A stretch of 64,000 nucleotides of DNA from an uncultured Gammaproteobacteria bacterium (GCA_964599625.1 CAZRGC010000003.1:97759-161758), one strand, 5' to 3'. Shown: positions 380-17,107, counted from the stretch's first letter. Notes: generated by a model not told the origin, from the sequence alone. Program-made: numbers and translations.

Positions 380-1345
380 ATGGACAATACTCTATCTCAA
401 TTAATTGATTCGTCTTCATCTGTACTTATTATTTTGCCAACAAAACCGTACTTTGATCAGGTTGCTGCGGGGCTTTCGCTTTATTTATCTCTTAGGGATA
501 AGAAAGATGTGGCTATAACATGCCCAAGTCCAATGACAGTCGGATTTAATAGGCTCATAGGGGTTCAAAAGATTGTTTCTGAGGTTGGCAATAAGAATCT
601 AACAATTAGGTTTGCAGGATACGACGCCACAAACATTGAAAAGGTGAGTTATGATATCGAAAACGGTGAATTCAAACTAACTGTGGTTCCCAAGGTCGGT
701 TTCGATTCTCCTCAAAAGGAAAACTTGAACCTGAATTATTCAGGGATGTCTGCTGACCTTGTTATTTTGGTGGGTGGTGCCAACGAGACTCATTTTCCGG
801 TACTAACCTCACCTGATTTTAGTGTAGAAAAAATTGTTCATGTAGGCACAAGAGTTTTAACCACAACCCGTGAAGTCATGTCGCTTTCGAAACCGGGTTC
901 TTCTACCAGTGAAATTGTTGCCAACATAATTAAGACTAACGAGCTTGCAATGGACCCGGATATCGCAACCAATCTCATCATGGGTATAGAAGAGGGCAGC
1001 TCCCACTTTGAGAGTTCCGAAGTTCGTGCGGAAACCTTTGAGACTTTTGCTTTTCTTTTAAGAAATGGAGGAAGGAGAATGCCTAAAAACAAATTAAGTC
1101 CCATGAATTTTCCTCCAGGATCAATTCCCGGAGTACCCGTAGCCCAGCCAGGGATAAGGCTTCCAAAGATGCCACCGATGCCACCTTTGCAGACTCTACC
1201 TTCTTTTGATGAAGTTCTTGCTCCTGACATGGACTCAACCAAAGAGGAAGAATCTGAAATTGACCCCCCTGACGATTGGCTTCAGCCAAAAGTATTCAAA
1301 GGATCCGTTAACCAACCCGAGTCTTTTAGCGAGAACAAGGGTTAA
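380..1345 (+). CDS. DHH/NrnA-like phosphoesterase fold protein with degenerate catalytic motifs and a Pro-rich C-terminal tail
   Basis: The N-terminal pattern VLIILPTKPYFDQVAAGLSLYLSL…DLVILVGGAN resembles DHH motifs I-III of NrnA (IxHxxPDxDAxGS…DxvixvD) but lacks the His/Asp residues. A DHH gene commonly follows infB/rbfA. The C-terminus is PPGSIPGVPVAQPGIRLPKMPPMPP. Confidence 0.35.
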   Translation: MDNTLSQLIDSSSSVLIILPTKPYFDQVAAGLSLYLSLRDKKDVAITCPSPMTVGFNRLIGVQKIVSEVGNKNLTIRFAGYDATNIEKVSYDIENGEFKLTVVPKVGFDSPQKENLNLNYSGMSADLVILVGGANETHFPVLTSPDFSVEKIVHVGTRVLTTTREVMSLSKPGSSTSEIVANIIKTNELAMDPDIATNLIMGIEEGSSHFESSEVRAETFETFAFLLRNGGRRMPKNKLSPMNFPPGSIPGVPVAQPGIRLPKMPPMPPLQTLPSFDEVLAPDMDSTKEEESEIDPPDDWLQPKVFKGSVNQPESFSENKG

Positions 1346-2470: not shown

Positions 2471-4825
2471 ATGAAGAAAATAACAAAATCTTTAGAGCTC
2501 GGAGGAAAAACTCTGACTCTTACCACAGGTGAACTTGCAGAACAGGCAGCGGGTGCAGTTCTCGCTAGAATGGGCGACACAGTCGTATTGGCAACAGTGG
2601 CCGCAGCTCCACTCAAGATGGAAATGGATTATTTTCCACTTACAGTTGAATACCTCGAAAGACTTTATGCCGGTGGACGTATCAAAGGCAGTAAATGGGT
2701 CAAAAAAGAAGGAAGGCCCACAGATGAGGAAATTCTTTCCGCGAGACTTATAGACAGATCCATAAGACCCCTTTTCCCCAAGACCTACAAAAAAGAAGTT
2801 CAGGTGATTGTCACTGTAATGGCTGTGGACATGGAAAATGACCCTGCCATTTTGGGTGCAATCGCGGCTTCGGCAGCTGTTCACGTTTCTACACTTCCCT
2901 GGAAAGGTCCAGTTGCTCCACTTACGGTTGGACTTATAAACGGAGAGTACAAGATTAACCCGTCAAATTCAGAGATGGAAAATTCACTTATGGATCTTAC
3001 AGTTTCTTCGACAAAAGAGGCTGTTCTCATGATCGAGGCAGGAGCCAAAGAAGTAACAGAAGAGCAAATTGTGGGAGGAGTTGAATTTGCACAGAAAGAA
3101 TCTAAAGCGGTTTTGGCTTTTATTGAAGAACTTGCAAAAGAGGCAGGTAGGGACAGAGAAACATATGTTCCCGAAAAACCTTCTGCTGAACTTGAAAAAC
3201 AAGTAGAAAAACTGGTTGGAGACAAAATTGCGGGTGTTGTTGAAAGCTTGGTTAGTGTAGAAAACGGAAGATCTACAGAGCTTCAGGATTTGATTGACGC
3301 AGTTGTTGCAAATGTTACGGAGGAAGATGCTAAATGGGTTCCTGAGATTGTTGACCATATGAAGAAAGATTATATTCGTAGTCAGATTCTCAAAAAAGGA
3401 AAAAGACCAGACGGCAGGAAACTCACGGAAGTCAGAAAACTTTCTGGTGAGGTTGGCTATTTACCCAGAGTTCACGGTTCGGCTTTGTTCAAAAGAGGGC
3501 AGACACATGTCTTGTCTGTAGCTACGCTTGGTGCTCAGTCAATGGGACTCCTTTTGGAATCTGCAGAAGGCGAAGTCGAAAAAAGATATATGCACCAATA
3601 TTCCATGCCTCCTTATGCCAGCGGTGAGGTTGGAAGATTTGGTAACGCAGGAAGACGCGAAATTGGACACGGTGCTCTCGCAGAACGTGCACTTACACCG
3701 GTAATTCCTTCTCAGGATGAGTTCCCTTACACAATAAGAGTGGTATCAGAAGTTATGAGTTCAAATGGTTCGACTTCAATGGCTTCTGTTGTTGGTTCTA
3801 CATTGTCACTCATGGATGCAGGTGTACCCATAAAAGCTCCTGTTGCAGGTATTGCAATGGGTCTCATTATCGAAAACGAAAAAGAATTTGCGGTTCTTTC
3901 GGATATCATGGGCATCGAGGACTTCAACGGTGATATGGATTTCAAAGTGGCAGGCACCGATAACGGAATTACAGCACTTCAGCTTGATGTTAAGACCCTA
4001 AACCTTACCAAAGAAATTCTGGAGAAAGCACTTGAACAGTCCAAGGATGCAAGGTCCCAAGTGATGAAAGCCATCAAGGACACTTTGGCTGAACCCAGAA
4101 CTACAGTCTCGGAATATGCACCCAAGATTAAAGTGGTTAAGATTCCAGTTGAGAAGATTGGGGAATTTATAGGCCCAAGCGGAAAGAATATCAAAAAGCT
4201 TATGGCTGACACAGGGTGTCAGGTGGACGTTGAAGACGATGGAAGTGTTGCTATATCTGGAGTTGACCCGGACAAGATGCAGCAGGCGGTTGCATTTGTA
4301 GAAGGTTTTGCAAAAGTCGTGCAACCTGGAGAAATTTATGAAGGTGAAGTCGTGAGACTTATGTCATTCGGGGCATTTGTAAATATTTTGCCCGGCAAAG
4401 ACGGCATGGTGCATGTTTCAGACATGGGCCAGGAGGGATTTGTTAAAGATGCAGGAGATGTTGTAAGCATTGGACAAAAAGTTCAAGTTAGAGTTAAAGA
4501 AGTTGACGATATGGGAAGAATCAATCTTTCTATGAATATGGATCCTGCAATGGATGAAAAGATCAAAGCTGAAAGACAAGCAAAGTTTGGTGACAGAGGC
4601 GGCAGAGGTGGCGGACGAGGTGGATTTGGCGGAGGTCGCGGCGGATTTGGAGGCGGCAGAGGTGGCGGACGAGGTGGATTTGGCGGAGGTCGCGGCGGAT
4701 TTGGAGGCGGCAGAGGAAGAAGTTTTGACAGAGCCGATAGGGGTGCAAGTGGGGGACCACATTTTCCTGCATCCAGATTAATGGGTGACAATAATTCTTC
4801 GGGTGGCAACGACTTCGGAAGATAA
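2471..4825 (+). CDS. pnp: polynucleotide phosphorylase with C-terminal RGG/Gly-Arg-rich extension
   Basis: Two RNase PH domains (…RPDGRKL…GSALFKRGQT…; …FNGDMDFKVAGT…), a KH domain and an S1 domain are all present. An extra ~90 aa follows: GDRGGRGGGRGGFGGGRGGFGGGRGGGRGGFGGGRGGFGGGRGRSFDRADRG. Confidence 0.95.
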   Translation: MKKITKSLELGGKTLTLTTGELAEQAAGAVLARMGDTVVLATVAAAPLKMEMDYFPLTVEYLERLYAGGRIKGSKWVKKEGRPTDEEILSARLIDRSIRPLFPKTYKKEVQVIVTVMAVDMENDPAILGAIAASAAVHVSTLPWKGPVAPLTVGLINGEYKINPSNSEMENSLMDLTVSSTKEAVLMIEAGAKEVTEEQIVGGVEFAQKESKAVLAFIEELAKEAGRDRETYVPEKPSAELEKQVEKLVGDKIAGVVESLVSVENGRSTELQDLIDAVVANVTEEDAKWVPEIVDHMKKDYIRSQILKKGKRPDGRKLTEVRKLSGEVGYLPRVHGSALFKRGQTHVLSVATLGAQSMGLLLESAEGEVEKRYMHQYSMPPYASGEVGRFGNAGRREIGHGALAERALTPVIPSQDEFPYTIRVVSEVMSSNGSTSMASVVGSTLSLMDAGVPIKAPVAGIAMGLIIENEKEFAVLSDIMGIEDFNGDMDFKVAGTDNGITALQLDVKTLNLTKEILEKALEQSKDARSQVMKAIKDTLAEPRTTVSEYAPKIKVVKIPVEKIGEFIGPSGKNIKKLMADTGCQVDVEDDGSVAISGVDPDKMQQAVAFVEGFAKVVQPGEIYEGEVVRLMSFGAFVNILPGKDGMVHVSDMGQEGFVKDAGDVVSIGQKVQVRVKEVDDMGRINLSMNMDPAMDEKIKAERQAKFGDRGGRGGGRGGFGGGRGGFGGGRGGGRGGFGGGRGGFGGGRGRSFDRADRGASGGPHFPASRLMGDNNSSGGNDFGR
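4598..4714 (+). repeat. perfect 54-nt tandem duplication (2 copies plus 9-nt partial third) inside the pnp 3' coding region
   Basis: Bases 4598-4651 are identical to 4652-4705 (ggcggcagaggtggcggacgaggtggatttggcggaggtcgcggcggatttgga). The unit is in frame and encodes GGRGGGRGGFGGGRGGFG twice. Confidence 0.9.
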
Positions 4826-4846: not shown

Positions 4847-5929
4847 GTGATACACTGGAAAGGAATTTTTTTTAAATTTGTTATGGATACTGCCGCACAA
4901 GAAATAAACGTACTTATAGAAAAAGTTAAGGCCTCGGATATGCCCGACAAACTTCGTGAGAGAGTGATGGTAAGACTTAGTCAGTTGGCAAAACTTACAA
5001 ATTCCCCATCTTTTTTGCCAGAATTCGACAGCATGGTCAAATATATTGATTGGATAACAATTCTTCCTTGGAACAAAAGAACTAAAGATGTTTTGGATCT
5101 AGCTAACGCCGCAAAAATTTTGGAAGAACATCATTACGGATTGGCCGAGCTAAAAGAGAGAGTTTTGGAGTACATGAGTGTTATGAAACTTAAAACAGAG
5201 CGCGGAGAAAGTGCAGACATATATAGGGCCCCAATTCTTTGTTTTGTGGGACTTGTTGGTACAGGAAAGACAACGATCGCATATTCTATTGCCGAAGCTT
5301 TGGGACGCCCCATTGCCCGTATTCCTTTTGGAGGAATGGGAGACCCGCTTGATCTTCGTGGACAGTCTCGTATGCACCCCGAAGCAGAGCCGGGGAAGAT
5401 TATTAAAGCACTAAGAGACTGTCAGTCCAAAAATCCTGTCATACTTTTGGATGAAATCGACCGTGTCACAGAACAGGGTAGGGCTTCAATAATGGGTGTT
5501 TTGGTTGAGCTTTTGGACCCTAAACAGAATAAAGCTTTTACTGACCACTATTTAGATTTTCCAGTGGATTTATCCGAAGCATTGTTTATTGCGACAGCAA
5601 ACAACACAACCAATATAGCAACTGCTGTTATGGACAGAATCGAACCAATTTCCATGCCTTCATACTCAGATCAAGAAAAAATAGTAATTGCCAAAAAATA
5701 TATTCTGCCGCACGCGCTTAAAGCGTCAGGGCTTCCCGAGGGGTCTTTAACTATAGACGACGAAGTTTGGATTAATATTGTCCGTCCTTTGGGATTTGAT
5801 GCAGGTATCCGTACATTGGAAAGAAATATAGACGGCGTTGTGAGGAAAGTTGCAAGGTTAATGGTGGAAGGAAAAGCACAAACAGTAAGTGTTACCCCCC
5901 AGAACGTTAAACAATTCATGCCACAGTAA
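4847..5929 (+). CDS. Lon-like AAA+ ATPase module without LAN N-domain and without S16 protease domain
   Basis: The sequence is collinear with the Lon helical linker plus AAA+ module. It has YIDWITILPWNKRT, HYGLAELKERVLEY, Walker A GLVGTGKTT, Walker B ILLDEID, DPKQNKAFTDHYLDFPVDLS and AGIRTLER. The protein ends where the Lon protease domain would begin. The true start may be M4883 (MDTAAQ…). Confidence 0.8.
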   Translation: MIHWKGIFFKFVMDTAAQEINVLIEKVKASDMPDKLRERVMVRLSQLAKLTNSPSFLPEFDSMVKYIDWITILPWNKRTKDVLDLANAAKILEEHHYGLAELKERVLEYMSVMKLKTERGESADIYRAPILCFVGLVGTGKTTIAYSIAEALGRPIARIPFGGMGDPLDLRGQSRMHPEAEPGKIIKALRDCQSKNPVILLDEIDRVTEQGRASIMGVLVELLDPKQNKAFTDHYLDFPVDLSEALFIATANNTTNIATAVMDRIEPISMPSYSDQEKIVIAKKYILPHALKASGLPEGSLTIDDEVWINIVRPLGFDAGIRTLERNIDGVVRKVARLMVEGKAQTVSVTPQNVKQFMPQ

Positions 5930-5992
5930 TGTCACAAGAAAGCTATGCCGCAGTAACTCACTAAGTCTGCGACATAAAATTTACAAGCTATT

Positions 5993-6559
5993 TTGTTGTG
6001 TATAATGTTTGAAATGGCAGAGGTTGGATACAATGTTTACGCACAAGAACGAAGATATATAGAAACCCGTGTTGCTGAGATTACATTGGTGGAGCATATA
6101 GCAACAATGTATAAATCCATTCAAGACAATGTTACTACGGGTTGGCATTCTGTAAACAATACTCAAAACCAAATTCTGGACATATTGGCAAACGATTACA
6201 ATTCATGGCAATCGTTTCCTGAGCACCAAAATAAAGCAGGTTTGGACAGGGGCGCTCACGGTGAATACTTTATGAGACTGATTGGAGCCGGAATATTGGA
6301 GGATTTACCTCACAGATTTTTGTCAGAAGATGGAAAAGACATTTCGGGCGTAGAAATTCTCGCCACTCCTTCAGGAGACGACGGTGTAGGTATATTTGAT
6401 GTGACTTTTAAAATAGAATCAGGCAAAAAGAATGAATTTGGAAGGGTTAGAGTAAACGCAAGTATGCAATCACTTAGAGCTAGGATGAAAGATTTGTCCG
6501 AAGAGATGCGAATTTATAACGAAAGAATAAATGAAGGTAGGGGCGATTGGCAAAAATGA
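5993..6559 (+). CDS. hypothetical protein
   Basis: Supported only as an ORF with coding-like composition. No motif was recognised, and no Lon S16 protease motif (PKDGPSAG) is present. The start may be M6017. Confidence 0.35.
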   Translation: MLCIMFEMAEVGYNVYAQERRYIETRVAEITLVEHIATMYKSIQDNVTTGWHSVNNTQNQILDILANDYNSWQSFPEHQNKAGLDRGAHGEYFMRLIGAGILEDLPHRFLSEDGKDISGVEILATPSGDDGVGIFDVTFKIESGKKNEFGRVRVNASMQSLRARMKDLSEEMRIYNERINEGRGDWQK

Positions 6560-7032
6560 AAATATTAGTCATTTCTGACTCTCATGGACAAATTTCCAAC
6601 CTTGAACATATCTTGGGTTTTGCAAAAAAGATAGGCGCCGGGGCACTTATTCACTGTGGAGATTGGGATAATTTATCTTCCGTAGAAAAAGTTTTGGAGT
6701 CACAAATTCCGCTTTATTCAGTTTCTGGAAATGCCGATGTCGACCCCAGTATTAAAAAAAGACTAGAAGAAGGATCGGAAAAATATGGAGAAAACTTTCT
6801 GTATTTTGAGTTGGAAGGAAAAAAAATCGGAGTGACCCACAAACCTAAAGATGTTAAAAAATATTTTGAAAATAGTGGGGCAGATATAGTTTTTTGTGGA
6901 CATTTACACTCTGTAGACGACAATTTTGTTTCCGGAATCCGAGTTGTCAGACCCGGAGCGGTAAAATCAGGAATAAATATTGTTGTTTATGAAACAAAAA
7001 ATGGAGACCTAGAATTTATAAAAGATGAATGA
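6547..7032 (+). CDS. metallophosphoesterase, YfcE/MJ0936 family
   Basis: It has the calcineurin-like motifs ISDSHG, HCGDW, GNAD and GHLH, and a size of 161 aa. Confidence 0.8.
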   Translation: MAKMKILVISDSHGQISNLEHILGFAKKIGAGALIHCGDWDNLSSVEKVLESQIPLYSVSGNADVDPSIKKRLEEGSEKYGENFLYFELEGKKIGVTHKPKDVKKYFENSGADIVFCGHLHSVDDNFVSGIRVVRPGAVKSGINIVVYETKNGDLEFIKDE

Positions 7033-7615
7033 AAGTATAATTCACGAAAAATACAAAAAACTCCACGAGTTAAAAGACAAAATGGAAAAGGACGAATCTT
7101 TACCTTTGAAAAAGGGTGCCACCCGCCTTGTTTTTGGAACCGGTAACACAGAAGCAAAGATTTTATGTATTGGGGAAGGGCCGGGCTTTAATGAGGACCG
7201 AGAAGGTCTGCCTTTTGTGGGACAAGCAGGGAGGTTGTTGGATAAACTTTTACATCTTGCAGGCATCGAGCGCAAGACGGTATTTATAACAAACGTTGTT
7301 CATCACAGACCCCCTGAGAACCGTGACCCGTTGCCAGAAGAAATATCCGCTTACGGAAAATACCTGGACGAAATAATAAAAATAATAAATCCTAAAATGA
7401 TTATTACACTTGGAAGGTTTTCAATGGCAAAGTTTTTACCTGATGTATTTATTTCTCAGGTGCATGGTAAAAATTACAAAGTTGATTTTGGAGGCAGAAC
7501 AGTAACTATTGTGCCAATGTATCATCCCGCAGCAAGTTTGAGGAACGGCAATATTTTAGAAGCAGAAAAAAAAGATTTTTTAGAACTCGGAAAAATATTG
7601 CGGGATTTTAATTAA
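7025..7615 (+). CDS. uracil-DNA glycosylase, family 4-like
   Basis: Motif A GEGPG is followed by FVGQAGRLLD, and the C-terminal motif is HPAASLR. Confidence 0.75.
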   Translation: MNESIIHEKYKKLHELKDKMEKDESLPLKKGATRLVFGTGNTEAKILCIGEGPGFNEDREGLPFVGQAGRLLDKLLHLAGIERKTVFITNVVHHRPPENRDPLPEEISAYGKYLDEIIKIINPKMIITLGRFSMAKFLPDVFISQVHGKNYKVDFGGRTVTIVPMYHPAASLRNGNILEAEKKDFLELGKILRDFN

Positions 7616-7649: not shown

Positions 7650-9377
7650 ATGAAAACATCTTCGCAAAGCAAAAACATGAATGAAAAAAATATAAAAACC
7701 AATCCCTCGATAATGACAACAAAAGTTACAGGTGGAATGAAATTTATAGCACTTTCGGGAACAACAGGTGTTACAGAGAATCTTTATGTATATGAATACG
7801 GTAACGACATGGTTGTTGTTGACTGTGGTGTCGGGTTTCCCGAATCTGAAATGTTTGGGGTGGACCTGGTTATACCTGATTTTTCTTATATAAAACAAAA
7901 CGCCCACAAATTAAGAGGTGTTCTTATTTCTCATGGACACGAAGACCACATTGGAGGTTTACCTTTCCTGCTAAAGGAAGTAAAAACCACAGTGTATGCC
8001 AGTAAACTTGTTGCCGGTTTTATTCAGGAGAAACTTGATGATGCAGAGGTCCAGGGGAATATTAAAGTCTTTGACCCCGAACGTGATGTTTTGACACTTG
8101 GAGTTTTTAAAGTTACACCTTTCAGAGTTGCCCACTCGGTTCCCGATGGGGTTGGTTTTTGTATCGACACACCCGAAGGAAAAATGTTCCATGTGCCGGA
8201 TTACAAATTTGATTGGACACCTGTAGATGGTAGGCCGTTTGACGTCGCAAAACTTTCTGTTCTGGCATCTGGTGGTGCATTGGCCTTGGCATCGGATTCT
8301 CTGGGGTCTACTTCACCTGGATACACTGAAAGCGAGAGAGAGATAGAAGGCAGAATTGAACCTATTGTGCGGGACGCCAAAGGTAAGGTGTACCTGACCA
8401 CTATCTCGTCAAATATAAGTCGTATGCAGCAAACTCTTAATGTCGCAGCAAAAACAGGAAGAAAAGTATGTTTCATTGGCAGATCTATCGTCAGAAAGTC
8501 CGAAATAGCCAGAGATCTGGGTTTTATGTCGCAGGGGAACGGAATAATTGTTCAACCCAAACAAGCCGCCAAACTTCCACCCAATAAAGTTCTTTATATT
8601 ATTTCAGGTAGTTACGGTCAACCCGGAAGTGCACTATACAGGCTTTGTCTGGGCGACCACGACTTCTTGTCTATTGGCAGTAATGACGTGGTTATATTTT
8701 CGGCAGATCCTGCTCCTCCAGGCAGTAAGGCAAATGTTGATTTTTTGGTAGACAAATTAATCGAGTCTGATGTGGATGTGCATTATTACGACATGCAGGA
8801 AGATCTTCATGTTTCGGGACATGGATGTATCAAAGACATCGAAATGCTTTTTGCTTTAGTTAGACCAAAGTATTTTATACCAATTGGTGGAACAGTAAGA
8901 CACAATAGAGCATATGGACTTATTGCTCAAAGTATGGGTGCCGAAGAAAAAGAAATCCTTGCACTTTTGCCTGGCGACATTGTTGAGTTTAATTCTGGAA
9001 TAGCCAGAAGGTCCGGAAAAATTCAGGTTAAAGAGGTGCTGGTTGACGGATTAGGCATTGGAGATGTTGGCAATTCGGTATTAAGGGATAGACACATCCT
9101 TTCTAAAGAGGGAGTTGTTATTGCAATGTGCCAATTTGATCGCAACAACGGTGTTCTTTCCGCACTCCCCGAAATGATAAGCCGAGGTTTTGTTTTTGAA
9201 CAAAAATATGGCCGGCTTTTGGATGAAGCGTCACGGGACCTTGCAAAGGTCCTGGATAGAAAAAAGAATGTTAACGCGCTTTTTATACGAAACACTACGA
9301 TTGATTTTCTCGAAAAATATTTCTTCCAAAAAACAGGCAGGCGCCCAATGATACTTCCGTTGGTTGTGGAGACTTGA
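7650..9377 (+). CDS. rnj: ribonuclease J (metallo-beta-lactamase/beta-CASP)
   Basis: It carries HGHEDHIGG, the beta-CASP region and a C-terminal domain. The N-terminal ~25 aa are a probable overcall, and the start is more likely M7713 or M7738. Confidence 0.85.
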   Translation: MKTSSQSKNMNEKNIKTNPSIMTTKVTGGMKFIALSGTTGVTENLYVYEYGNDMVVVDCGVGFPESEMFGVDLVIPDFSYIKQNAHKLRGVLISHGHEDHIGGLPFLLKEVKTTVYASKLVAGFIQEKLDDAEVQGNIKVFDPERDVLTLGVFKVTPFRVAHSVPDGVGFCIDTPEGKMFHVPDYKFDWTPVDGRPFDVAKLSVLASGGALALASDSLGSTSPGYTESEREIEGRIEPIVRDAKGKVYLTTISSNISRMQQTLNVAAKTGRKVCFIGRSIVRKSEIARDLGFMSQGNGIIVQPKQAAKLPPNKVLYIISGSYGQPGSALYRLCLGDHDFLSIGSNDVVIFSADPAPPGSKANVDFLVDKLIESDVDVHYYDMQEDLHVSGHGCIKDIEMLFALVRPKYFIPIGGTVRHNRAYGLIAQSMGAEEKEILALLPGDIVEFNSGIARRSGKIQVKEVLVDGLGIGDVGNSVLRDRHILSKEGVVIAMCQFDRNNGVLSALPEMISRGFVFEQKYGRLLDEASRDLAKVLDRKKNVNALFIRNTTIDFLEKYFFQKTGRRPMILPLVVET

Positions 9378-12985: not shown

Positions 12986-14815
12986 ATGCGATATACTTTA
13001 CGCATGACGACGAAGGAAATAAGAGAAAAATATTTAGAATTTTATAAAAAACAAAACCATAAGATTATTGCTCCATCTCCGTTGGTTTTGGAAAACGACC
13101 CAACAACGCTGTTTACTTCGTCCGGAATGCAACAAATGATCCCCTACTTAAAAGGTGAGACGCATCCTCTGGGAAAAAGACTTGTTGATTCGCAGCCGTC
13201 ACTCAGGCTGCAAGATTTGGAAGAAGTTGGAGATAATCGTCATACGACTTTTTTTGAAATGCTTGGTAATTGGAGTTTGGGTGATTACTTTAAAGACGAA
13301 CAACTCAATTGGATCTGGCAGTTTTTTACAAAGGAGCTTGGGCTTAATCCCGACAGACTTTACGTGTCATGTTTTGCCGGAAACGAGAGTGTTGCAAAAG
13401 ATGAGGAATCATACGAAATTTGGAAAAAAATTGGTGTTCCCGAAAATCACATTCATTTTTATGATGCCAAAAAAAACTGGTGGAGCAGAGCAGGTGGGCC
13501 CGACCAAATGCCTGCTGGTGAAGTGGGTGGACCAGATAGTGAAGTCTTTTTTGAATTTGAGAATGTGTCCCACAACCCAGAATTTGGCAAATTTTGTCAT
13601 CCGAACTGCGACTGTGGAAAATTCATGGAGATTGCCAACTCAGTTTTTATGCAGTTTAAAAAAGAGAGTAGCGGGAGTTTGAGCGAGCTGCCTCAGAAGA
13701 ATGTCGACTTTGGGGGAGGTCTCGAAAGAATCTCGGCTGCTTTAAACAATGATCCTGATATTTTTAAAATAGACATTTTTGACTCAATTGTTAAGAAGAT
13801 TGAAAAAGAAGTTGGTGCAGAGTACGGAACTGACGAAAAGAAGACAAAGAGTTTCAGGGTTATAGCGGATCATCTTCGTGCTTCCTGCAATCTTCTTTCG
13901 GAGGGCGTCATTCCTTCCAACAAGCTCCAAGGTTATGTGCTTAGGCGTTTGGTTAGACGGGCGATGTTTCACTTTCACTTGTTGGGAAGCGGAATTTCTG
14001 GGAGTGCAGTCTCATCCATCGCTGAAAGCCTTAGAAATGAGTATCCAATTATCGATAAAAACTGGCAAGTTGTATCAGAAAACTTGACTATAGAGGCAAC
14101 AAAGTTTGAATCTGCTCTCAAACGGGGTCTTGCCAAATTGACTAAGGGGGTTTCCGGTGGCAAAAACATTGACGGTAAGTTTGCATTTGACTTGTATCAA
14201 ACAGAGGGTTTTCCTCTTGAGCTTACGCTTGAGATTTTGACTCAAAACGGAATGCAGTTTAGTGACAACGAGAAGAATAATTTTGCATCGGAATTTGAAA
14301 AACATAAAGAAAACTCAAGAACAACAAGTGCCGGAATGTTTAAAGGTGGTTTGGAAAGTAAGAGCGATGAGACAATCACCAAGTTGCATACTGCGACACA
14401 TCTTTTGCATGCATCGCTGAGAAAGGTATTGGGAGAACATGTTTCCCAAAAAGGAAGCCATATTACGAAAGAAAGATTGAGATTTGATTTTTCTCACCAA
14501 TCTAAACTTACTCAAGAACAGATAAAAGAAATTGAAAATCTTATAAACGAACAAATTAAAAAAGATTTACCTGTGTCTTTTGAGATGAAAACTCTTGATG
14601 AGGCGATTACAGAAGGCGCTTTGCATTTTTTTGCGGAGAGATATGGGAGTGAGGTTAAAGTCTATACGATTGGTGACCCTAAGGGTGATTATTTTTCTAA
14701 AGAAATATGTGGCGGTCCCCATGTTGCCCACACTGGCGAGGTTGGTAATATTAGTATAATAAAGCAAGAGAGCATTGGTTCAGGAACAATTAGGATTTAT
14801 GCGTCTATAACCTGA
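12986..14815 (+). CDS. alaS: alanine--tRNA ligase, short form lacking C-Ala domain
   Basis: FEMLGNWSLGDYFK marks the class II AlaRS core. The editing domain motifs HTATHLLH and CGGPHV are present. The protein ends after the editing domain at 609 aa. The start is possibly M13004. Confidence 0.85.
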   Translation: MRYTLRMTTKEIREKYLEFYKKQNHKIIAPSPLVLENDPTTLFTSSGMQQMIPYLKGETHPLGKRLVDSQPSLRLQDLEEVGDNRHTTFFEMLGNWSLGDYFKDEQLNWIWQFFTKELGLNPDRLYVSCFAGNESVAKDEESYEIWKKIGVPENHIHFYDAKKNWWSRAGGPDQMPAGEVGGPDSEVFFEFENVSHNPEFGKFCHPNCDCGKFMEIANSVFMQFKKESSGSLSELPQKNVDFGGGLERISAALNNDPDIFKIDIFDSIVKKIEKEVGAEYGTDEKKTKSFRVIADHLRASCNLLSEGVIPSNKLQGYVLRRLVRRAMFHFHLLGSGISGSAVSSIAESLRNEYPIIDKNWQVVSENLTIEATKFESALKRGLAKLTKGVSGGKNIDGKFAFDLYQTEGFPLELTLEILTQNGMQFSDNEKNNFASEFEKHKENSRTTSAGMFKGGLESKSDETITKLHTATHLLHASLRKVLGEHVSQKGSHITKERLRFDFSHQSKLTQEQIKEIENLINEQIKKDLPVSFEMKTLDEAITEGALHFFAERYGSEVKVYTIGDPKGDYFSKEICGGPHVAHTGEVGNISIIKQESIGSGTIRIYASIT

Positions 14816-14878: not shown

Positions 14879-17107
14879 ATGAATTTAAAAGATTTTTTGT
14901 CCAACAAAGGAAAACCACCCGAACTCTATTGGTCGTTGGTATTGGAAGACGGTTGGGTTCAAGCCGGTATTTGGTATATAGATCAGTCTGTTGCGCAGGT
15001 TGTTGGAACAAGTCCCGCAGCAGCATGGGAAGTCAAAGAAGAATTGGTTGGAGCAACTGATTCAGCTTTGTCTTCGGCGATTCAAAGACTTCCGGAGGAT
15101 TACCCCGAACCCAACAAGACAGTGTTTGGCGTTCCTTCTTCATGGGTCAAAAACGGCGAGATCGACGAAGATCATTTGAGGTTGATTAAAAAAATTTGTT
15201 CAGAACTATCATTGATACCTGTGGGTTTTGTTGTGCTTCCTGAAGCAATTGCACATCTTTACAAGTCTGAAGAAGGGGCGCCTGTTAATGCGATAGTAAT
15301 GGGAATAGGGAGAGAGAATTTGGAAATTGCAGTGTTTTCTTTGGGTAATCTGTTGGGTACAACTCAGGTTGCCAGAAGTGTGTCTTTAATCGATGATGTT
15401 ACCGAGGGGCTATCCAGATTTGAAAGCTCTTCACCGCTCCCGTCTAGGTTTATTCTTTTTGACGGAAAAGGGGGAGAGTTGGAGGATGCTAAAGACCAAA
15501 TCCTAAAAAATCGTTGGGAAGAGAGTGAAAGAGTCAAATTTTTACACACACCAAAAGCTGAAATATTGCTCCCCGAAAGGAAAGTTTTGGCAACGTCTTT
15601 GGCGGGTGCAAACGAAATTGCAGATGTCTCAAAAGTTGAAACTCAAGACCAAAAAGAAGTTATCGAAGGTCCCTATACGGAGAACATCCCACCCGAAACA
15701 GCAAATGTCCAGGAAACAAACGAAGTTACACCTGAAGACCTTGGTTTTTCTTTGGATTCCGACGTGAGTTTGAACAAACAGGTTGAACCTGATGTTGTAA
15801 AAGCTTTTGAAAAACCGCCGGCTACTGAGCACGTGCAGCCCACGATTCACCGTCAATCTCCTGTTTTTGAACATAAGCCAAAAATTAACCTTAAAGAAAT
15901 GTTCAATAAAGTGAAAACAAAAGCATCGGCTTTGCTGAAAAGACTTTCGTTTTCGGCAAAAATCTCTTCTGCCAGACATGGAGTGATGAAGCCGGTGTAT
16001 CTGGTTGTTCTTGTGCTTGTTTTGGCAGGACTAGGGGCGCTTTGGTGGTTTGTACCCAAAGCGGAAGTAGTTGTATATGTTAGGCCTCAAATAGTTCAGG
16101 AAGAAACAGAAGTTGTATTTACAACTAGTGGCCAGGGTGACATAAATTCGGGGTTGGTTGCTGCCAAATCCGTGACCTCTAATGTTAGCGGCGAAAAGAC
16201 GAAGTCGGCAACTGGAAGCAAACTTGTCGGTGACAAAGCCAAGGGTACAGTACAAATTCAAAACGGCACAGCATTTCCAATCAATCTGACTGCCGGAACT
16301 TTTTTGGTGTCGTCGGGTAATTTAAAATTCGAACTTGATCAGGCAGCCTCAGTCTCTGCTGCGCTGTCCCCGACTTCGCCGGGAACGGCTAGCTTGTCTG
16401 TGACGGCGGGTTCGATAGGCGCGGAATACAATTTGGCAAAAAGTGAAGTATTCAAGGTAGGCAATTATCCCAAAGCCGAGGTTGATGCCACATCAATAAC
16501 CGACTTTGCAGGAGGAAGCTCCAGACAGATTTCAGCCGTAAGCAAAGTGGATATTGAAACATTGCAAACTTCACTTAAAGAGGAGCTAGTACAAAAAGCA
16601 AAGGAAGATTTATCGTCTAAGGTTTTAGACGGCCAAGTGTTGGTTTCTGATTTTGTTTCAAGCGATGTTGCATCCGAAACATTTGATCACAAACAGGGTG
16701 AAGAAGCCAACAACGTTAAGTTAAATATGGAGATTGCTGCCAATGCGCTTGTGGCCGACAAGAACAATTTATATGATTTTGCATCAAAAGTTCTGACTGA
16801 CAAAAAACCGGAGGGTTTTGTTTTAAGAAACGAACAAATAAAGTTCGAGTTTAGTTTTGTGGAACAAAAAGACGAGGGTTATGTTTACAAGGTAAAAATC
16901 AATGCAAATTTCCTACCTTCATTTTCTGAGAAGGACATAGTAGATAAAATTATTGGAAAGAACCGGGCAACCGCAAAAAATTATCTGTCGAGTATTCCTG
17001 GCTTCGTAAGGGTGGAACTGAAAATCAATCCGCCTTATCCGTTTATATTTAACAGCCTTCCAAGAGTTAGAAAAAACATTGATATTACAGTTGAGGCAGA
17101 CAGGTAG
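14879..17107 (+). CDS. membrane-anchored protein: N-terminal actin-like (FtsA/PilM-type ASKHA) domain, one TM helix, large extracytoplasmic domain
   Basis: Residues 1-250 show ASKHA-like topology (SLVLEDGWVQAGIW as phosphate-1; GVPSSW…LIPVGFVVLPEAIAHLY; AIVMGIGRENLEIAVFSLG) with degenerate ATP motifs. A TM helix is VYLVVLVLVLAGLGALWWFV. The remaining ~350 aa are Ser/Thr/Val-rich. Confidence 0.4.
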   Translation: MNLKDFLSNKGKPPELYWSLVLEDGWVQAGIWYIDQSVAQVVGTSPAAAWEVKEELVGATDSALSSAIQRLPEDYPEPNKTVFGVPSSWVKNGEIDEDHLRLIKKICSELSLIPVGFVVLPEAIAHLYKSEEGAPVNAIVMGIGRENLEIAVFSLGNLLGTTQVARSVSLIDDVTEGLSRFESSSPLPSRFILFDGKGGELEDAKDQILKNRWEESERVKFLHTPKAEILLPERKVLATSLAGANEIADVSKVETQDQKEVIEGPYTENIPPETANVQETNEVTPEDLGFSLDSDVSLNKQVEPDVVKAFEKPPATEHVQPTIHRQSPVFEHKPKINLKEMFNKVKTKASALLKRLSFSAKISSARHGVMKPVYLVVLVLVLAGLGALWWFVPKAEVVVYVRPQIVQEETEVVFTTSGQGDINSGLVAAKSVTSNVSGEKTKSATGSKLVGDKAKGTVQIQNGTAFPINLTAGTFLVSSGNLKFELDQAASVSAALSPTSPGTASLSVTAGSIGAEYNLAKSEVFKVGNYPKAEVDATSITDFAGGSSRQISAVSKVDIETLQTSLKEELVQKAKEDLSSKVLDGQVLVSDFVSSDVASETFDHKQGEEANNVKLNMEIAANALVADKNNLYDFASKVLTDKKPEGFVLRNEQIKFEFSFVEQKDEGYVYKVKINANFLPSFSEKDIVDKIIGKNRATAKNYLSSIPGFVRVELKINPPYPFIFNSLPRVRKNIDITVEADR

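Follow-up and report, generated by a model that had tools for sequence, protein, structure and literature searches.

Lon is the textbook example of a single polypeptide that combines an ATPase with a protease, and a natural lineage devoid of both the protease and the N-domain is therefore informative. In crystals, the E. coli Lon(235-584) fragment was found in an ADP-bound state as an open helical hexamer, in a study that also pointed out the resemblance between the LonA HI(CC) region and the ClpB H1/M domain (PMC6722904). LonC is presented as a Lon-like protease without ATP-powered unfolding (PMC3391209). In the Meiothermus LonA (MtaLonA), Tyr397 of pore-loop 1 and Trp431 of pore-loop 2 touch the translocating substrate, and both are needed for degradation (PMC8503904). 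Here, we analyzed a 64,000-nucleotide stretch of an assembly filed under an uncultured Gammaproteobacteria bacterium (GCA_964599625.1, CAZRGC010000003.1:97759-161758; hereafter the window), in which positions 4847-5929 on the plus strand encode a Lon-type AAA+ ATPase lacking both domains. We are nearly certain that this gene represents a functional family of protease-less, Lon-derived ATPases.

Counted from a GTG codon, the open reading frame (ORF) at 4847-5929 comprises 360 aa in the ORF listing. The real coding sequence most likely starts at the ATG at 4883 and extends to 5929(+), comprising 348 aa plus the stop codon, because the 120 closest database homologs are 348-351 aa long and align from that Met; an upstream extension to the GTG at 4847 is possible. 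The Pfam analysis retrieved AAA (5.4e-18) and Lon_lid (PF22667, 2.2e-10) and no other Lon-specific family, while Lon_C (PF05362) and LON_substr_bdg (PF02190) produced no match in the ATPase even at E<=1. The NCBIfam endopeptidase La equivalog (TIGR00763) was matched only at profile positions 253-573 of 795, and the score of 327.3 bits lies far below the family cut-off of 608. A similar outcome was obtained with PRK10787, for which the ATPase scored 251 versus a cut-off of 891.

The comparison with solved structures placed the protein within the central portion of LonA. The top match, B. subtilis Lon (3m6a, 4.6e-78), was collinear across query residues 6-346, and the other best matches, the LonA of human (LONP1) and of E. 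coli, were likewise collinear from the pre-AAA+ helical region to the end of the lid, with the full length of the ATPase showing ~40% identity to Lon residues ~245-580. An AlphaFold2 model computed from a 61-sequence alignment reached a pLDDT of 92 and a pTM of 0.86 and was adopted in place of a model based on a shallow alignment restricted to sequences with over 80% identity, which was discarded at a pLDDT of 62. The retained model superposed on LonA AAA+ modules with TM values of 0.80-0.88 and spanned the same region as 6N2I, the Lon(235-584) fragment engineered from the E. coli protein (TMq 0.86, TMt 0.89). Its N-terminal helical region (aa 1-106; 4883..5200, +) contains predicted helices at residues 2-17, 22-37, 44-60, 73-83, and 88-106, aligns to Lon ~245-350, matches 6N2I, and is equivalent to the C-terminal portion of the LonA HI(CC) domain, that is, the three-helix bundle and the linker helices preceding the nucleotide-binding domain. 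At the other end, the Lon lid, the small alpha-helical AAA+ subdomain (aa 280-333; 5720..5881, +), is supported by the PF22667 match and is followed by only 2-3 residues, with no docking loop or tail evident. The ATPase thus consists of the LonA three-helix bundle, a complete nucleotide-binding domain and AAA+ module, and the Lon lid.

The absence of the remaining Lon domains was examined beyond the gene itself with our own hidden Markov models (HMMs) for the Lon protease domain and the Lon N-terminal region, built from 40 full-length LonA representatives; as a control, both models recognized their domains in almost every full-length Lon among the representatives. The targets were stop-to-stop six-frame segments of the window and of 80 related loci (~10 kb on either side of the ATPase gene), totaling 1.6 Mb, and neither model produced a match at E<=10 in any of the six frames. 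Lon_C was also absent among the called genes of four more distant loci (L081-L084), and no S16 domain or other peptidase was found within ~10 kb in the resulting 84 loci. Similarly, none of the 237 family proteins (120 plus 117 database relatives, introduced below) carried a Lon_C signal. An earlier note, made from the DNA sequence alone, had described a stand-alone Lon AAA+ module with complete motifs that starts in the helical region without a LAN domain and stops at the boundary where the protease should begin, and each of these statements agrees with the AAA and Lon_lid architecture, the collinearity with 3m6a, the intact motifs described below, the lack of PF02190, the start of the TIGR00763 match at position 253, and an end 2-3 residues past the lid without Lon_C. 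The two ways in which a full Lon could have been overlooked were also pursued: a Lon_C domain hidden in 5930-6560 gave no match at E<=10 in the six-frame window translation, and the gene is not a frameshifted remnant, as its orthologs share a common end, dN/dS is ~0.014, and no domain remnant is left.

A column-by-column comparison between 81 Microgenomates family members and 40 LonA sequences revealed strong conservation of the ATPase site. The Walker A motif or P-loop (GLVGTGKTT, aa 123-131; 5249..5275, +) corresponds to the canonical LonA GPPGVGKTS, with G123, G126, G128, K129, and T130 invariant in both groups and L124, V125, and T131 specific to the family. The Walker B motif (VILLDEID, aa 186-193; 5438..5461, +) holds D190, E191, and D193, all invariant in the family; the first two are likewise invariant in LonA, the last being found in 39 of the 40 LonA. 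Sensor-1 N240 (5600..5602, +) and the Arg finger R252 with its preceding D251 in a DR motif (5636..5638, +) were invariant in the family and in LonA, as was sensor-2 R310 (5810-5812, +), located inside the Lon lid. Other invariant positions specific to the family comprise N241 and T242 following sensor-1, W296, and the RPLG[FY]D stretch (R301-D306) preceding sensor-2, the last two also within the lid. In these alignments, the residues needed to bind and hydrolyze ATP (K129, D190/E191, N240, R252 acting in trans, and R310) are all intact.

The pore loops followed a different pattern. The canonical LonA pore-loop 1, RGHRRTY[VI]GA[ML]PG, is replaced by RGQSRMHPEAEPG (aa 159-171; 5357..5395, +), so that TY[VI]GAMPG becomes MHPEAEPG. 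The pore-loop-1 Tyr was present in 40/40 LonA, whereas the equivalent family position was His in 67/81 members and Tyr or Phe in only six, with Pro occupying the next position in 77/81. The position once held by Tyr varies across the wider clade (H, N, S, and F, among others), and in the corresponding alignment E169 was invariant (61/61) and position 167 was D or E in 56/61. Pore-loop 2 (RVTEQGRASIMG, aa 194-205; 5462..5497, +) has likewise lost its aromatic position at G199, where F or Y occurs in 30 of the 40 LonA and G, A, or S in 81/81 family members; counted from Tyr397 without gaps, this position equals Trp431 of MtaLonA. In the same region the canonical GDP of LonA is replaced by [AS]SI. 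Every protease-less representative at 50% identity with a readable loop carried a non-canonical pore-loop 1, whereas canonical LonA representatives bearing the N-domain carried RGHRRTY or close variants, with Tyr always present. According to the alignments, the family has lost both substrate-gripping aromatics and gained an invariant acidic pore-loop 1 (P-[D/E]-A-E-P-G). What surprised us most was this correlated loss of the protease and of the pore-loop aromatics, together with the extreme conservation of the family.

Next to these features, the distribution of the family was broad. The first homology search retrieved at least 120 clusters at the 90% identity level, and among the 120 matches listed all were 348-351 aa long, contained AAA and Lon_lid only, and came from Microgenomates and Woesebacteria; their database names read "AAA family ATPase" or "ATP-dependent Lon protease". 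For the locus comparisons, we kept 80 of the 107 relatives that a scan of species-representative genomes yielded; they belong to Woese-, Shapiro-, Gottesman-, Levy-, and Daviesbacteria. Complete or nearly complete genomes with the gene include CP011214.1, CP066686.1, CP066693.1, and OY970314.1. By searching from a 40%-identical member, we obtained 117 further clusters of 342-493 aa with the same architecture, including Dojkabacteria, Nomurabacteria, and sequences labeled "Patescibacteria group", and the top 150 cluster representatives at 50% identity contained ~25 independent protease-less clusters. In a neighbor-joining (NJ) analysis based on 338 columns from the AAA+ region of 90 sequences, all protease-less proteins were separated from the 40 canonical LonA in 200/200 bootstraps, and the divergence inside the protease-less clan (0.77) matches that among LonA (0.78). 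Given this bootstrap split and within-clan divergence, the protease-less proteins constitute one old family of single origin, not scattered truncations.

We delimited the clade by a length of ~340-420 aa, the presence of AAA and Lon_lid only, an end at the lid, and the signature motifs LRGxS[RK]xxP[DE]AEPG, ANN[TL], and W...RPLG[FY]DxG[IV]R. The window ATPase, with its 348 aa and the same architecture, carries LRGQSRMHPEAEPG, ATANNT, and W296...RPLGFDAGIR, and by these sequence features is the Microgenomates representative of a clade spread through the candidate phyla radiation (CPR), an ordinary member of a large uncharacterized family. The statement in the earlier note that protease-less Lon homologs are rare is consequently contradicted by a large family across Microgenomates and other CPR lineages; of the refuting condition that it named, a well-populated and already annotated family, the first half held and the second did not, as the existing database labels are only generic, or wrong ("Lon protease"). 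Neither NCBIfam nor Pfam contains a dedicated model for the family, and full-text literature searches turned up no description of a protease-less Lon in CPR, the Microgenomates complete-genome paper being silent on Lon. The nearest full-length Lons that could be named belong to Clostridiales and Deinococcus, not to CPR, which is neutral with regard to the occurrence of full-length Lon in CPR.

The same searches brought up a separate group of Lon-related proteins of 900-1700 aa, and one of 3865 aa (P0121-P0138, P0142, P0151, P0154, P0157, and others). These contain Lon_C and mostly lack the Lon N-domain; each matches the AAA+ module in 2-4 separate stretches, and many have a pore-loop 1 of the LRGHNRTW type. 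They scored above canonical LonA against the ATPase query and could comprise tandem or interrupted AAA+ modules.

The conservation of the gene was consistent at the level of both its boundaries and its sequence. The orthologs in 80 species-level genomes are 339-363 aa long and share a single end position in the alignment; an additional copy (L054), interrupted by a contig end, stands outside this count. The flanks are tightly packed, with the next conserved gene frequently beginning tens of nucleotides after the ATPase gene. Between ATPase genes, the proportion of synonymous differences (pS) was 0.74-0.79, hence saturated, against a nonsynonymous proportion (pN) of 0.04-0.14, and the closest pair exhibited a ratio of nonsynonymous to synonymous rates (dN/dS) of 0.014. 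In 51 of 57 genomes, the ATPase equaled or exceeded PNPase, RNase J, and FtsK in protein identity, with medians of 72% for the ATPase versus 64%, 62%, and 67%, respectively. The ATPase gene is under very strong purifying selection.

Taken together, the explanation that we favor, with moderate confidence, is that of a functional stand-alone LonA-derived ATPase working as a non-proteolytic remodeler, chaperone, or switch, within an old CPR-wide clade without N-domain and S16 domain. This clade has lost the substrate-binding domain at the N-terminus as well as the S16 protease at the C-terminus. The protein would still assemble into a Lon-like hexamer, as suggested by the conserved trans Arg finger and by the helical hexamer packing of the equivalent E. 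coli fragment, and, given its motifs, would hydrolyze ATP. Without the Tyr/Trp paddles and the degradation chamber, it presumably neither threads nor destroys proteins, and most likely acts on specific clients as an ATP-driven remodeler or chaperone, or as a binding switch controlled by nucleotide. These clients are probably basic, since the acidic pore would favor basic proteins over nucleic acid through the pore, and the gene would be expressed together with the information-processing genes of nusA-infB-rpsO-pnp and with rnj. The non-threading mechanism taken by itself we regard as quite possible, though at somewhat less than even chances. The role suggested in the earlier note is accordingly narrowed: an unfoldase, or the partner of a separate protease, is weakened by the loss of the pore-loop aromatics and by the lack of S16 within ~10 kb in 84 loci, while a non-proteolytic chaperone stays within our best explanation.

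Some considerations weigh against this explanation. The oligomeric state and the ATPase activity are both read from motifs, and the DNA inspected amounts to ~64 kb of this genome and ~20 kb per ortholog, so an S16 or other peptidase may be encoded elsewhere. Tyr or Phe is kept at the pore-loop-1 position in the six members mentioned above, in which some gripping may persist. Gene order in CPR is moreover generally conserved and nearly all genes are co-directional, which makes the neighborhood weak functional evidence.

The genomic context of the ATPase consists of a conserved co-directional block that includes infB, a DHH-like gene, rpsO, pnp, the ATPase gene, an optional metallophosphoesterase gene, a UDG-family gene, rnj, and ftsK. 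The gene encoding PNPase (2471..4825, +; Pfam RNase_PH twice, KH, and S1) ends 57 nt before the ATPase start and was found upstream in 72 of the 80 loci, although not in L073 and L080. A UDG-superfamily protein (7025..7615, +; Pfam UDG, 1.3e-31) was encoded downstream in 59/80, and RNase J (7650..9377, +; Pfam RNase_J_b_CASP and RNase_J_C) was present in 71/80. The order dnaJ-nusA-infB-x-rpsO-pnp-ATPase-UDG-rnj(-ftsK) was kept in one Nomurabacteria and one Dojkabacteria contig. The ATPase and UDG genes are directly adjacent in L081 (8001-9748), L082 (8001-9873), and L084 (8001-9556), the last of which has the nusA-infB block inverted and lacks pnp and nevertheless keeps the ATPase-UDG pair intact with overlapping stop and start, making this the most persistent gene pair, reaching distant CPR lineages. 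Four genes are inserted between pnp and the ATPase gene in L083. A scan of the pnp-ATPase interval for promoter-like and terminator-like sites found none, its yield being at or below the shuffled expectation. Because nusA-infB-rpsO-pnp is an ancient bacterial operon and nearly every gene of the window lies on one strand, the linkage is suggestive, and points to co-expression with information-processing genes, no more.

The PNPase itself exhibits an uncommon C-terminus. At 4540-4825 of the window, ~95 aa rich in Arg and Gly (RGG/FGG repeats) are followed by a short conserved SGGPHFP[AT]SRL, and three or more RGG/GGR repeats were found in the PNPase tail of 35 of the 72 related loci. The GPHFP motif was present in nearly all Woesebacteria-type loci (L001-L064 compared), while Levy-, Shapiro-, and Gottesman-type loci carried other PNPase terminal motifs (DDHPLTRQFRRER..., EFDRFSHFRKR). 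This C-terminus, unusual for a bacterial PNPase, resembles a disordered basic tail that carries a docking peptide.

These neighbors bring into view a role for the ATPase as an accessory of RNA or DNA metabolism, acting on the proteins encoded beside it, such as PNPase with its basic RGG tail and GPHFPTSR, RNase J, or the UDG-family protein. We consider this unlikely, and it would be a special case of the non-proteolytic remodeler and not an exclusive alternative to it. The pnp-ATPase-UDG-rnj order maintained from Woesebacteria to Nomurabacteria and Dojkabacteria speaks for it, as do the survival of the overlapping ATPase-UDG pair in the L084 rearrangement, the occurrence of the Arg/Gly-rich PNPase tail and its conserved motif alongside an acidic pore-loop 1, and the uninterrupted pnp-ATPase junction, where the site scan did no better than on shuffled sequence. 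The same linkage may, on the other hand, be historical, given that nusA-infB-rpsO-pnp forms an ancient operon and that the genes here typically run in long co-directional blocks; pnp is missing upstream in L073 and L080, four genes intervene in L083, and the PNPase motif is lineage-specific whereas the ATPase is not. A bolder version, which we judge improbable, is that Lon was converted in CPR into a non-threading AAA+ machine whose acidic pore acts on the basic disordered tails of RNA-processing or ribosome-associated proteins, PNPase RGG tail and GPHFPTSR included. If true, the ATPase would be an ATP-dependent regulator of RNA decay or of ribonucleoprotein assembly in reduced genomes.

Two-component AAA+ proteases, such as ClpXP and HslUV, exist, and the ATPase could by analogy be the unfoldase half of a split Lon, with an S16 or ClpP/HslV-type peptidase encoded elsewhere in the genome. 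The fully intact ATPase site and the small part of each genome that was examined are in keeping with such an arrangement. Nonetheless, no Lon_C was found in any frame in ~10 kb around the 80 loci or in the 64-kb window, nor among the L081-L084 genes, and the pore-loop-1 Tyr and pore-loop-2 aromatic were lost precisely in the protease-less clade; therefore, an unfoldase feeding a separate protease is argued against. Partner ATPases such as ClpX and HslU retain the aromatic pore loop, unlike the ATPase described here, which also ends 2-3 residues past the lid with no docking tail. We hold a split Lon to be a poor prospect, with only a small chance of being correct.

An even smaller chance is left for a catalytically inert scaffold, that is, a Lon fold kept after the loss of ATP hydrolysis, in a mirror image of LonC. 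The altered Walker A context (GPPGVGKTS to GLVGTGKTT) and sensor-2 surroundings (YTREAGVR to LG[FY]DAGIR) would suit it, but the P-loop Lys and Thr, Walker B Asp and Glu, sensor-1 Asn, Arg finger, and sensor-2 Arg are all invariant, and this invariance spans a clade as divergent as all LonA, which renders the scaffold very improbable. Finally, although the end point of the ATPase coincides with the AAA/protease domain boundary, a degraded Lon, whether a truncated or frameshifted pseudogene or an assembly artifact of a full-length lon, was excluded with a negligible residual probability by the common end point in 80 species representatives, whose 339-363 aa architecture recurs in more than 230 database clusters, the dN/dS of ~0.014, the lack of any protease or N-domain remnant in the window and 80 loci, and the tight packing of the flanking genes.

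Two further candidates in and around the gene were also discarded. Immediately downstream of the ATPase gene lies an ORF of 188 aa (5993..6559, +), which shares 13 nt with the metallophosphoesterase gene that follows it. The earlier note had found no protease motifs in it, in line with our finding of no match in Pfam, NCBIfam, PHROGs, or PADLOC; a homolog was present in only 1/80 related loci (L062, 34% identity). With neither family matches nor conservation, it was rejected as a partner or protease and is a lineage-specific insertion, an orphan outside the system. An anti-phage defense AAA+ ATPase was likewise rejected, as PADLOC gave only weak P-loop-level matches for the ATPase (best DolB, 7e-06, 23 bits), and the gene is a core member of a conserved housekeeping block.

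Some additional features of the window deserve mention. Throughout 1-64000, almost every sizeable ORF is on the plus strand, the GC skew is positive in each 2-kb bin, and the cumulative skew is monotonic, so the window looks like one leading-strand stretch, including rpoB/rpoC and ribosomal-protein operons. Two ORFs, at 14879-17104(+) (742 aa) and 380-1342(+) (321 aa), matched no Pfam family at E<=1e-5; the latter separates infB from rpsO, with conservation in 63/80 loci, and the infB-adjacent gene of L084 belongs to the DHH family. The alanyl-tRNA synthetase at 12986-14812(+) has only 609 aa (tRNA-synt_2c and tRNA_SAD), ends straight after the second additional domain, and is shorter than the typical bacterial enzyme.

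The protease-less lineage equals LonA in age and divergence, is more tightly constrained than PNPase, RNase J, or FtsK, and has a rebuilt pore, which points to the re-use of the Lon motor for a purpose other than degradation over a large part of the bacterial tree. This bears on protein quality control in CPR bacteria, whose genomes are ~1 Mb, and metabolic reconstructions should not take an automated "ATP-dependent Lon protease" label on these genes as evidence of proteolytic capacity. Being small, well delimited, and apparently soluble, the family is amenable to direct biochemistry.

Compared with LonA (endopeptidase La; MEROPS S16, TIGR00763), the ATPase has in common the three-helix bundle, the nucleotide-binding domain, the pre-sensor-1 region, the Lon lid, and the catalytic ATPase residues, and it differs by the absence of the LAN/PUA-like N-domain (PF02190), the long coiled coil, and the S16 Ser-Lys protease domain (PF05362). 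The Tyr-[Val/Ile] of LonA pore-loop 1 stands against mostly His-Pro with two acidic residues in the ATPase family, and the aromatic of pore-loop 2 against Gly, Ala, or Ser. The ATPase keeps the Lon ATPase fold but lacks four of the features that define LonA, namely the protease and N-terminal domains, the aromatics of the pore loops, and a score above the family cut-off, and it should be neither classified nor annotated as a Lon protease. The E. coli Lon(235-584) structure 6N2I has near-identical boundaries (query 1-344 equals chain 4-337) but is a laboratory truncation with canonical pore loops, whereas the ATPase is natural, evolves independently, and has remodeled pore loops. LonC likewise represents a natural uncoupling of the two Lon activities, in the opposite direction: the protease is kept and the AAA-like domain is inactive. 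A functional analogy is offered by ClpB/Hsp104 versus ClpA, in which the AAA+ ring of a protease-associated lineage works without a peptidase. ClpB, however, keeps aromatic pore loops and threads its substrate, whereas the ATPase family has lost them, and therefore its mechanism need not be threading.

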